DNA from: Escherichia coli O127:H6 str. E2348/69
GTDB taxonomy: Bacteria; Pseudomonadota; Gammaproteobacteria; Enterobacterales; Enterobacteriaceae
DNA: 64,000 nt
NCBI RefSeq assembly: GCF_000026545.1
Contig: NC_011601.1
Strand: one strand, 5' to 3'
The notes under the pieces are model-generated. The model saw only the letters and a list, made by a program, of their open reading frames with translations, was not told the origin of the DNA and did not search any database. Positions 18,869 to 20,846 of the stretch are shown here, piece by piece (positions within the stretch are counted from its first letter, which is position 1; each line of letters starts with the position of its first letter). The position numbers and the translations under genes were made by a program.

Positions 18869-18884
18869 GCGAAGTTAACCCTCT

Positions 18885-18892
18885 CCGCCCGG
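18885..18892. repeat. Left copy of 8-bp flanking direct repeat CCGCCCGG (putative target-site duplication)
   Basis: Identical 8-mer directly abuts both IS termini (18885-18892 and 20443-20450). Confidence 0.55.
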
Positions 18893-18911
18893 CTGTCTCT
18901 TATACACAAAT
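18893..18911 (+). repeat. IS left terminal inverted repeat (Tn5 outside-end/mosaic-end-like)
   Basis: CTGTCTCTTATACACAAAT; compare remembered Tn5 OE CTGACTCTTATACACAAGT and mosaic end CTGTCTCTTATACACATCT. Confidence 0.8.
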
Positions 18912-19057
18912 CCCCACCCGGGGATTTGTGATGTCTGTCAGTCTGCTTTAGGGGGACTCTTTCCATCCGGTAGTTTCCTTCCTCCCCGGCAGCGATTTTT
19001 TGAACTTTTTCCTCACCTGTTGATCTTCTCTTATATTTCATTTCCTTCGGGTCTGTT

Positions 19058-20431
19058 ATGGTACTTTCTGATTGTTATTCATGGGCTAACGAGCAGTTTG
19101 GACATGCCCGTCTCGGTGATCCGCGTCGTACACGACGCCTTGTGTCACTGGCCTCTTCTCTCGCTCAGCATGCAGGTCTTTCTATTGTGAAATCATCCCA
19201 GTCCACTGCTCAGGTTGAAGGTGCGTACCGCCTGATACGTAACCCGTCTGTGTCCCCGCAAGCCATTGCCGAAGCCGGATTTACCGCCACTGTAAGGGCA
19301 TGTGAGGCTCATCCGCTGCTCCTCGCGCTGGAAGACACCACCACCATTAACTTCAGTCACAGTACGGCATCTGATGACCTGGGGAATACCACCACTAACC
19401 CGAAGACGCGCGGGCTGCTGGCTCACTCTGTCCTGATGTACGCCCCCGACAGCGCCCTGCCAGTCGGTCTTATCGAACAGCAGCGCTGGAGTCGTGCCAC
19501 GGACACCTACGGTGTTAAGCACCAGCGAAAAGAACGTCCCTATGAAGAAAAAGAAAGTTACCGCTGGCAGCAGGCTTCGGAGCGCATGGCCGAATGGCTG
19601 GGGGAGATACAGAAACGGGTAATCACTGTCTGTGACCGGGAAGCGGATATCTGGCATTACCTGCATTATAAAGTCAGCCACGGGCAGCGCTTCGTGGTGC
19701 GTGCAGCACAGAATCGCCGGCTGGAAGAAGCACCCGGCAAGCTCTTCGAACTGCCGGAAGTCCTGGCAACCGCGGGAAGCCACACGCTGAATGTGATGCA
19801 AAAAGGCGGGCGGGCAGCCCGCCAGGCCCGGATGTTCATCAGTTACAGCGAAGTCAGCATAAAAAATCCCGACAACAGCGGCCAGGCGCTCCCGCTCACG
19901 TATGTCTGTTGCCGGGAGCAGGCAGAGGACGGCGCCTGCTGGCATCTGCTGACGTCAGAAAAAGTGGCGAGTGCCGCCGATGCGCGACGTATCGTCAGCC
20001 ATTACGAGCGACGCTGGCTGATAGAGGAATACCACAAGGCGTGGAAAAGTGGTGGTACATGTGTGGAATCGCTGCGAATGCAGACCCGGGATAACCTCGA
20101 GCGCATGGTGGTTATCAAGGCGTTTATCGCGGTGCGGGTGCTGGGCCTGCGGCAGGGCGGTATCAGTGAAGAAACACAAAATGACAGCTGTGAGAAAATA
20201 CTGACGCCGACAGAGTGGAAACTGCTGTGGGTTAAGCTGGAAGGAAAACCGCTTCCGTCACAGATGCCGACACTGAAATGGGCCTGTCTGAAACTGGCGA
20301 AACTGGGGCGATGGCATGACAGCAAACGCACCGGTCGCCCCGGTTGGGTAGTCATGTGGGATGGCTGGTTCAGACTTCAGGATATGGTTGAGGGTTACCT
20401 GGTGATGAAGTCTCTTGATCAGGAGATCTGA
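19058..20431 (+). CDS. IS4-family (Tn5 Tnp-like) DDE transposase
   Basis: 457-aa ORF; motifs LGDPRRTRRL, LEDTTT, VCDREADIW and YERRWLIEEYHKAWKSG align with the Tn5 transposase DDE/YREK regions, but overall sequence is clearly diverged from Tn5 Tnp. Confidence 0.9.
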   Translation: MVLSDCYSWANEQFGHARLGDPRRTRRLVSLASSLAQHAGLSIVKSSQSTAQVEGAYRLIRNPSVSPQAIAEAGFTATVRACEAHPLLLALEDTTTINFSHSTASDDLGNTTTNPKTRGLLAHSVLMYAPDSALPVGLIEQQRWSRATDTYGVKHQRKERPYEEKESYRWQQASERMAEWLGEIQKRVITVCDREADIWHYLHYKVSHGQRFVVRAAQNRRLEEAPGKLFELPEVLATAGSHTLNVMQKGGRAARQARMFISYSEVSIKNPDNSGQALPLTYVCCREQAEDGACWHLLTSEKVASAADARRIVSHYERRWLIEEYHKAWKSGGTCVESLRMQTRDNLERMVVIKAFIAVRVLGLRQGGISEETQNDSCEKILTPTEWKLLWVKLEGKPLPSQMPTLKWACLKLAKLGRWHDSKRTGRPGWVVMWDGWFRLQDMVEGYLVMKSLDQEI

Positions 20432-20442
20432 TCAAGAGACAG
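20424..20442 (-). repeat. IS right terminal inverted repeat (IS50 inside-end-like)
   Basis: Reverse complement reads CTGTCTCTTGATCAGATCT, identical to the IS50 inside end as I remember it; contains GATC sites; overlaps the transposase stop codon. Confidence 0.8.
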
Positions 20443-20450
20443 CCGCCCGG
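20443..20450. repeat. Right copy of 8-bp flanking direct repeat CCGCCCGG
   Basis: Identical to 18885-18892. Confidence 0.55.
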
Positions 20451-20456
20451 AGAGGG

Positions 20457-20846
20457 TTAGTAGTTCCAGCGATAACGCTGCAAGTCGATTTGCCCTCTTC
20501 CTGACACCATCACACCTTCTGCCAGTAATGCCTGTCGCTGACGCTGTAAATCCGGTCCGGTTAGCGAAATGGTGCCGTGGCGATTAACCACCCGATGCCA
20601 GGGCAAGGTGCTGCCTTCCGGGAGACGCTTTAACACACCACCCACCTGGCGCGCGGCGCGGGGCGATCCCGCCAGTTTCGCCACATCACCGTAAGTGGTG
20701 ACATAGCCTTCGGGAATAGCTGCTACGATTTGCCAGACGCGTTGGGGAAATGAATCTTCTTTTTCCATCTTTTCTTCCTGAGGTAATTTTTCAGCATAAT
20801 CTGGAAAAACGCCCGAGTGAAGCCGCATTGCGCAAGAAACCAGCAT
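20457..20846 (-). CDS. atl: Alkyltransferase-like DNA base-flipping protein Atl (YbaZ)
   Basis: ORF-track frame 20457..20867; start at MLVSCAMRLHSGVFPDYAEKL gives 129 aa; conserved PWHRVV motif. Confidence 0.92.
   Translation of the reverse strand: MLVSCAMRLHSGVFPDYAEKLPQEEKMEKEDSFPQRVWQIVAAIPEGYVTTYGDVAKLAGSPRAARQVGGVLKRLPEGSTLPWHRVVNRHGTISLTGPDLQRQRQALLAEGVMVSGRGQIDLQRYRWNY

Follow-up and report, generated by a model that had tools for sequence, protein, structure and literature searches.

Tn5, a workhorse of tagmentation and mutagenesis, is valued for its near-random insertion, and its target consensus is reportedly weak (Goryshin et al. 1998, cited in PMC2266710). Transposases of the Tn5 type act on double-stranded targets, and in IS50 the stop codon of the transposase gene (tnp) lies inside the right end of the insertion sequence (IS). 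Among other mobile elements, IS1397 homes to the palindromes of repetitive extragenic palindromic (REP) sequences and bacterial interspersed mosaic elements (BIMEs), bacterial class C group II introns home to the stem-loops of intrinsic terminators, thereby limiting host damage, and IS231A is said to have the target consensus GGG-N5-CCC. Here we analyze a 64,000-nucleotide stretch of the chromosome of Escherichia coli O127:H6 str. E2348/69 (NC_011601.1; the window from here on), in which the convergent genes ybaY and atl have a common hairpin whose loop is occupied by an intact copy of the catalogued ISEc13, a Tn5/IS50-type DDE transposon that was very probably placed there by its own choice of palindromic targets. 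The IS4 family carries a D-D-E triad and a Y-(2)-R-(3)-E-(6)-K signature, a 5'-CT end rule holds for the subgroups of IS10 and IS50, and IS231A has insertion specificity (PMC2266710); ISPpu9 inserts in REP sequences (PMC12288879).

The element in the window (18893-20442, + strand, full length, 1550 bp) is 100% identical in nucleotide sequence to RefSeq/PGAP loci annotated as 'IS4-like element ISEc13 family transposase', an annotation on which the name ISEc13 rests, and both the element and its insertion are already known and annotated. Matching places number 27-30 per chromosome record of E2348/69, with 2 more on plasmid pMAR2. The single, intact transposase gene (19058-20431, + strand) encodes 457 amino acids that align with the whole length of the Tn5 transposase at 42% identity (E = 7e-83), carries Pfam domains PF14706 and PF01609 and scores 511.6 bits against the NCBIfam model NF033590 'IS4 family transposase' (cutoff 160). 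Residues D93/D193/E323 and the motif Y316-R319-E323-K330 align with Tn5 D97/D188/E326 and Y319/R322/E326/K333, and an equivalent of W298 is also kept. The left terminal sequence, CTGTCTCTTATACACAAAT (18893-18911, + strand), matches the IS50 outside end at 17 of 19 positions, the right one, CTGTCTCTTGATCAGATCT when read as the reverse complement (20424-20442, - strand), matches the IS50 inside end at 19 of 19, GATC sites included, and the first 9 bp (CTGTCTCTT) are identical at both ends. With a single open reading frame (ORF) for a DDE/YREK transposase, 5'-CT ends, a target duplication of about one helical turn and a tnp stop codon inside the right end, as in IS50, the element is of the IS4/IS50 type, and the label 'IS50-like' given to it by an earlier reading made from the sequence alone (the sequence-only reading) was correct. 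On the other hand, ISEc13 departs from IS50/Tn5 in several respects. Its duplication is 8 bp at this and most other sites and 9 bp at some, which is within the family range and one base below IS50, whereas that of Tn5 is 9 bp; its target is strongly palindromic, in contrast to the weak consensus of Tn5; perfect hairpins overlap both of its ends; and its transposase has no ATG at the position of Met56, which we take to be the start of the Tn5 inhibitor.

With regard to target choice, the closest analogue within the family would be IS231A of Bacillus thuringiensis, which likewise has short G-run and C-run half-sites with dyad symmetry around the duplicated segment but belongs to another subgroup, has 5'-CA ends and a 10-12-bp duplication, differs in the polarity and spacing of its half-sites and lives in Gram-positive hosts. 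IS1397 and ISKpn1 (IS3 family) as well as ISPpu9, ISPpu10 and IS621 (IS110 family) resemble ISEc13 in outcome, as they home to the loops or stems of intergenic palindromes (in their case REP/BIME) that act as safe havens. Their transposases, however, are unrelated, the IS3 elements moving by copy-out-paste-in and the IS110 elements by bridge-RNA-guided recombination, and they target a defined repeat family, whereas the motif used by ISEc13 is short and degenerate and occurs in numerous hairpins that are unrelated to each other. Group II introns of class C differ in being retroelements, not DDE transposons, that reverse-splice into single-stranded DNA downstream of the hairpin without duplicating the target.

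The IS sits exactly in the loop of the ybaY/atl hairpin and leaves the ORFs on both sides intact. To its left, ybaY (YbaY family lipoprotein; 18296-18868, + strand) ends with a TAA codon at 18866-18868; to its right, atl (ybaZ; 'MGMT family protein', 103 amino acids according to RefSeq; 20457-20768, - strand) has its stop codon (TTA on the + strand) at 20457-20459, two of the three bases lying within the right arm of the hairpin. The boundaries can be read directly: the left flank, ending in GCGAAGTTAACCCTCTCCGCCCGG, stops at 18892, the element runs from CTGTCTCTTATACACAAAT to AGATCTGATCAAGAGACAG, and the right flank, CCGCCCGGAGAGGGTTAGTAG, begins at 20443, with the 8-bp target-site duplication CCGCCCGG at 18885-18892 and again at 20443-20450 and a single copy of it in the empty site. 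A repeat search shows that the arms of the split hairpin, AACCCTCTCC (18877-18886) and GGAGAGGGTT (20449-20458), are perfect reverse complements. Taking out the IS along with one copy of the repeat restores GCGAAGTT-AACCCTCTCC-GCCC-GGAGAGGGTT-AGTAG, i.e. a perfect 10-bp stem with a 4-nt loop, starting 8 nt after the ybaY stop codon and overlapping that of atl. The sequence-only reading had placed a 1550-bp element in this loop, had predicted both the stem with its GCCC loop and the sequence of the empty site, and had proposed a comparison with genomes free of the insertion. Element, stem and empty site were all confirmed. The predicted empty site, GCGAAGTTAACCCTCTCCGCCCGGAGAGGGTTAGTAG, occurs verbatim in strain Z0117EC0005 and, with one single-nucleotide polymorphism in the flank, in a K-12-like strain, and the reconstructed 600-bp empty site aligns contiguously in 5394 of 5426 complete E. 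coli genomes, so that the comparison revealed neither a different empty site nor an element present in all E. coli. A longer element, for which a match of 13-17 nt of flank in copies elsewhere might have spoken, was excluded by three empty-site loci; the similarity among these flanks stems from the common target motif. The gene order mdlB-glnK-amtB-tesB-ybaY-IS-atl-ffs-ybaA-pdeB in the window is that of the E2348/69 chromosome.

To describe the targets of ISEc13, junctions were collected from other complete genomes, from contigs encoding the exact transposase, from a metagenome scan with the left-end 38-mer and from plasmids, giving after deduplication 31 distinct left flanks and 20 right flanks; for the metagenome hits, which included apparently shorter elements, no right end could be confirmed and only left flanks were used. 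About 35 distinct junctions in all bear out the target described here. In the direction of the IS, each side has C at positions -13 to -10, then mostly Y at -9, then the duplicated 8 bp. For example, C at -12 is found in 29 of 31 left and all 20 right flanks, or 49 of 51 half-sites (P ~ 1e-26). The target of ISEc13 derived from these flanks is 5'-CCYCY-N8-RGRGG-3', and the duplication is 9 bp at L022, L023, L029 and L156, whose half-sites are spaced one base wider. The relaxed form CYCY-N8/9-RGRG fits 14 of the 16 sites that have a clean duplication (P ~ 1e-44 against a shuffle-derived background), and four further plasmid sites fit the motif, among them that of a variant with 95.5% identity that occurs in E. 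fergusonii and Salmonella. Freed of the IS, the window (62.4 kb) contains the strict motif once, at the ybaY/atl hairpin. In the mechanism that we propose, ISEc13 would integrate almost only in CCYCY-N8 (sometimes N9)-RGRGG palindromes, duplicating the 8-9 bp between the C-run and G-run half-sites, each subunit of the transposase would read one half-site on double-stranded DNA, and at the locus under study the 8-bp staggered cut would be centred on the loop of the conserved 3' hairpin common to ybaY and atl. Since the targets are mostly G+C-rich stems of intergenic hairpins, the IS would land in loops between genes and do little harm. More tentatively, ISEc13 could represent an undescribed Tn5-type transposon with strong, sequence-defined targeting in which the spacing of the half-sites sets the 8- or 9-bp stagger, a view to which we give slightly less than even weight. 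No account of its target choice was found in the literature searched, which did not extend to ISfinder or the E2348/69 genome paper; a review of the IS4 family does not mention ISEc13 (PMC2266710), and the papers found to name the element do so only within lists of mobile elements.

Other targets of ISEc13 include the hairpin directly after lysP (AAGCCCTCTC-AACC-GAGAGGGCTTTTT), the convergent mog/satP hairpin, an ibs toxin locus and the dppA/tRNA-Pro spacer, and most observed sites are intergenic. The reconstructed empty sites at lysP and mog/satP are present at 100% identity in other genomes, which verifies both the 8-bp duplication and the existence of the hairpins before insertion. Some targets have been used repeatedly: the same position is occupied in two copies of a repeated G+C-rich intergenic element (L008 and L027/L028), and at mog/satP (L017 and L025) as well as at a prophage site (L026 and L056) the IS is found on the identical 8 bp in both orientations. 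The copies at L027 (CP148541.1, 2303817-2308190) and L028 (2364294-2368667) have swapped flanks, the left flank of one and the right flank of the other together restoring the 8-bp duplication, a pattern that points to an inversion of ~60 kb by recombination between both copies. Matching duplications are also lacking for the pMAR2 copy (L011) and for L013. In a Salmonella Kentucky plasmid (L155, 1-368), an ISEc13 variant lies in a CCCC-N8-GGGG hairpin and adjoins an IS200/IS605 tnpA gene.

The full left junction of the ybaY/atl insertion was found in 13 of the 5426 complete genomes, always at the same position and in the same orientation, in strains from humans, dogs, a monkey and a pig. These carriers comprise three E2348/69 assemblies, SCU-115 (human), A25 (monkey), a pig isolate and seven human or dog genomes in which the ybaY/atl copy is the sole ISEc13 copy; CP148541 is an additional carrier, and an inverted ISEc13 at this site was found in none of the 5426 genomes. 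The IS copies at ybaY/atl differ from each other by up to 31 nt (2%), and that of A25 is a mosaic of two IS haplotypes. By flank sequence the carriers form no clade, and their nearest neighbours are strains with an empty site: SCU-115 is closest to an ST131 strain, with 4 differences in 1.3 kb on each side, and RM14723 to ATCC 11775 and Nissle, whereas E2348/69 lies at about the same distance from every B2 allele. The flanks of CP148541 and RM14723 are almost identical, but their IS copies are 2% apart. In Escherichia whittamii (L073, NZ_JACSQI010000007.1, 1313-1402), a related IS occupies the orthologous atl hairpin in the opposite orientation; its left end, CTGTCTCTTATACACAAGT, adjoins atl and matches the IS50 outside end at 18 of 19 positions, and the contig stops inside the IS. 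From this we infer that ISEc13 favours the ybaY/atl hairpin as a target and that the genus Escherichia has seen more than one insertion there; within E. coli, the data do not distinguish repeated insertion from a single old event with later recombination and gene conversion.

The best explanation for the IS in the ybaY/atl hairpin, and one that we consider highly probable, is that ISEc13 prefers CCYCY-N8-RGRGG palindromes and was placed there by this preference. Several points weigh against it. L037 has no C-run, and L022 and L029 fit the motif poorly; palindromy frequently extends to ~10 bp, which leaves room for recognition of structure rather than sequence; all target sites come from sequenced genomes and have hence already been through selection; the 13-14 E. 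coli carriers share one orientation, as common descent would give; gene conversion can account for the mosaic IS haplotypes at ybaY/atl; ISfinder or the E2348/69 genome paper may already describe the target preference; and every transcriptional consequence in E2348/69 considered below is a prediction. If the IS read structure, in the form of extruded hairpins or cruciforms or of single-stranded hairpins, the C- and G-runs would merely reflect stable stems, and this would agree with the complementarity outside the duplication, which amounts to 0.78-1.0 over the first four positions and still to ~0.4-0.7 out to 8 or about 10 bp (chance, 0.25), and with the many targets that are genuine hairpins with 8-10-bp stems (ybaY/atl, lysP, L030 and mog/satP). 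However, L014, L015, L021 and L022 have half-sites of 4-5 bp only, without an extended stem, the C-run stands in a fixed register to the IS ends, the targets include no stable hairpins of another sequence type, and for Tn5-type transposases the use of double-stranded targets is established. A structure-reading IS is therefore unlikely, and the sites with only 4-5-bp half-sites favour recognition of sequence-defined half-sites on duplex DNA. That ISEc13 has no target preference at all, and that of random insertions only the harmless intergenic ones survive, is barely conceivable: it would fit the mostly intergenic position of the sites, but selection cannot yield a fixed-register motif flanking the duplication (P ~ 1e-26 to 1e-44), and the reuse of identical 8-bp positions in both orientations would remain unexplained.

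Two further explanations concern the history of the site. The sequence-only reading took the insertion for a recent, strain-specific event, which would be a chance arrival of an IS50-like element that broke a bidirectional terminator and allowed read-through both ways. The IS does split the hairpin, the copy is 100% identical to others in E2348/69 (~29 copies), as a recent burst would leave it, and a consensus scan predicted no terminator-like site on the + strand between the ybaY stop codon and tnp. Yet an event confined to one strain is contradicted by its presence in 13 of 5426 genomes with different flank and IS haplotypes, by IS copies up to 2% apart, by the empty-site strains that are nearest by flank and by the inverted related IS in E. 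whittamii; the site fits a strong target motif; breakage of a terminator sits poorly with a hairpin that has no U-tracts and with K-12 transcripts that already overlap (PMC12288877); and read-through both ways is opposed by the strong hairpins that the IS supplies at both ends and by its terminator-like sites on the atl strand. Taken as a whole, this account is improbable, more so than recognition of structure. A stronger competitor, although in our view still rather unlikely, is a single old insertion at ybaY/atl in a B2 ancestor, followed by recombination of the filled allele, gene conversion and loss. It would explain the position and orientation common to all E. coli carriers, the mosaic copy of A25 and the pairing of near-identical flanks with IS copies 2% apart in CP148541 and RM14723, the former having many possible donors for conversion. 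On the other hand, the nearest flank relatives of SCU-115 and RM14723 are empty, the filled allele is confined to 13 of 5426 genomes in spite of the many B2 genomes whose flanks are 99.7% identical, and independent reuse of the same 8 bp is seen at two other targets and, for the hairpin itself, in E. whittamii.

In a 60-nt context, the reconstructed ybaY/atl hairpin has a folding energy of -21.6 kcal/mol on the strand of ybaY (z = -4.6; none of 200 shuffles folds as well) and of -20.3 kcal/mol on that of atl (z = -2.8). The genes atl and ybaY are convergent in 79 of 80 species representatives of the Enterobacteriaceae, and 42 of the 80 have a perfect stem of 9 bp or more behind the stop codon of atl, compared with 2.75% of shuffled controls; the hairpin sequence differs by genus (CCCTCTCC, GCTCCTCC, GCGCCTC, ATGCCCC and others), as is characteristic of a conserved structure with sequence turnover. 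In the O157-type allele (L007, O157:H7 TT12B, 4268-4320), which reads AACCCCTTTCC-ATCT-GGAGAGGGGTT, a compensating extra C:G pair is present and the stem reaches 16 bp (-27.3 kcal/mol), a G.U pair on the ybaY strand corresponding to an A.C mismatch on the atl strand. The search for the empty site also returned ~309 genomes in the 90-95% identity band. The sequence-only reading had called the hairpin a probable bidirectional terminator. In favour of this stand the stable stem and its conserved position in Enterobacteriaceae, along with an A-tract at the orthologous hairpin in 12 of 80 species and, in L125, both A- and T-tracts, as is typical of intrinsic terminators. Against it, no U-tract lies beside the E. 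coli hairpin on either strand (tails AGTAGTTC on the + and AACTTCGC on the - strand), and a consensus terminator scan of the empty allele did not call it. ExcludonFinder lists ybaY-ybaZ among 165 convergent pairs whose transcripts overlap in at least 50% of MG1655 RNA-seq samples, a listing that shows overlap without locating 3' ends (PMC12288877). Some overlap of the ybaY and ybaZ transcripts is unavoidable, because the hairpin overlaps the atl stop codon, and a look for mapped 3' ends in the supplementary tables of TERMITe found ybaY absent from them. With no U-tracts and with overlapping transcripts in K-12, the 'bidirectional terminator' is plausible but unproven, and we treat the structure as a conserved, shared 3' hairpin that may serve as a terminator, as an mRNA-stabilising structure or as both.

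The IS brings hairpins of its own to the site. At the left, a perfect hairpin, CACAAATCCCC-ACCC-GGGGATTTGTG (18905-18930, + strand), overlaps the end of the element and appears in the minimum free energy (MFE) fold of the left junction. At the right, an internal inverted copy of positions 3-15 of the right end (GTCTCTTGATCAG) faces the terminal copy over 5 nt, forming a perfect 13-bp palindrome, GTCTCTTGATCAG-GAGAT-CTGATCAAGAGAC (20410-20440), that holds three GATC (Dam) sites and the last residues of the transposase with its stop codon and that dominates the right-junction fold on the atl strand. This palindrome could serve as a hairpin at transcript ends, or else as a site that binds the transposase in a decoy or regulatory role. 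The strongest of the terminator-like sites that the consensus scan predicts on the atl strand within the IS is GGCGGGCTGCCCGCCCGCC followed by TTTTT (19823-19805, - strand), in which seven G:C pairs precede the T-run and at which read-through from atl would stop. No sigma-70-like promoter inside the IS reached the threshold of the promoter scan, and the fold of 18866-19090, inspected for a structure hiding the tnp start in read-through RNA, did not differ from that of shuffled sequences (z = -1.2). When an RNA running from ybaY into the IS takes its MFE fold, CCCUCU of the flank (18877-18882) pairs with AGGGGG (18950-18955), ~58 nt inside the left end, and encloses this end and its hairpin; this may be coincidence, and as every target has a C-run at the same place, pairing of this kind could form at any insertion site.

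By destroying the shared hairpin, the insertion would leave the 3' ends of ybaY and atl 1.55 kb apart, and the native overlap of their transcripts would consequently be lost. Transcripts of ybaY would meet the 11-bp perfect IS hairpin 37 nt after their stop codon, and those of atl the 13-bp right-end hairpin and then the terminator-like sites inside the IS. As no terminator-like site is predicted on the + strand before tnp, read-through from ybaY into the IS is possible, in line with the sequence-only reading. With both ORFs intact and an IS hairpin at each end, we expect the effect on expression to be modest rather than dramatic.

ISEc13 is also found well outside the chromosomal sites considered so far. 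In a plasmid collection, 1138 plasmids match it, the majority being conjugative and of the F type, from Escherichia, Shigella, Salmonella and Klebsiella. Only 67 of the 1138 have it at full length, most matches being fragments of 90-95% identity; an old ISEc13 relic appears to be common in the backbones of these plasmids. Many metagenome contigs (L031-L071) with the exact left-end 38-mer have AAGAGACAG at only 929-1500 bp, or no recognisable right end, and recur at a few fixed sites, e.g. GAACCCCC|AGCTAGGC and GCGCCCCC|CTATCAGG; these short elements may be deletion derivatives or relics in other taxa. In the neighbourhood of the insertion, the start of atl is annotated inconsistently, with 103 amino acids in RefSeq, 129 elsewhere (~20457-20846) and 136 in the mechanical ORF, which has a TTG start and extends to 20867. 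The maltose O-acetyltransferase gene maa (23842-24394, - strand) is annotated as a frameshifted pseudogene in the E2348/69 record and is intact in the other strains examined, and Z0117EC0005 (L003, 2058-2516) has an IS200/IS605 tnpA gene between amtB and tesB. Five Rfam hits in the window reach the gathering score, namely the sRNA sraA (1625-1721, - strand), the signal recognition particle RNA ffs (20931-21027, + strand), the DnaX frameshift element (37833-37897, + strand), naRNA4 (45820-45897, + strand) and the sRNA sroB (51574-51657, + strand), all expected for this region of E. coli.

The insertion itself is routine, since both the IS and this copy of it, in the genome of a reference pathogen, are already catalogued or annotated, and the added value lies in the target rule, which explains both its location and its recurrence in unrelated strains and species. 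Recurrence driven by a motif means that shared ISEc13 positions do not count as evidence of common descent in strain typing, and it makes the sites at which ISEc13 alters 3'-end structures predictable, e.g. ybaY/atl, lysP, mog/satP and the ibs loci. Efforts to study or engineer target choice could naturally begin from such a close relative of Tn5 that keeps to a strict target. If the sequence-defined targeting that we propose, and its being undescribed so far, prove true, ISEc13 would offer a natural system in which to study the reading of target DNA by a Tn5-like transposase, and across different lineages of Escherichia and Salmonella a single IS would repeatedly be rewiring one and the same set of genes at their 3' ends.

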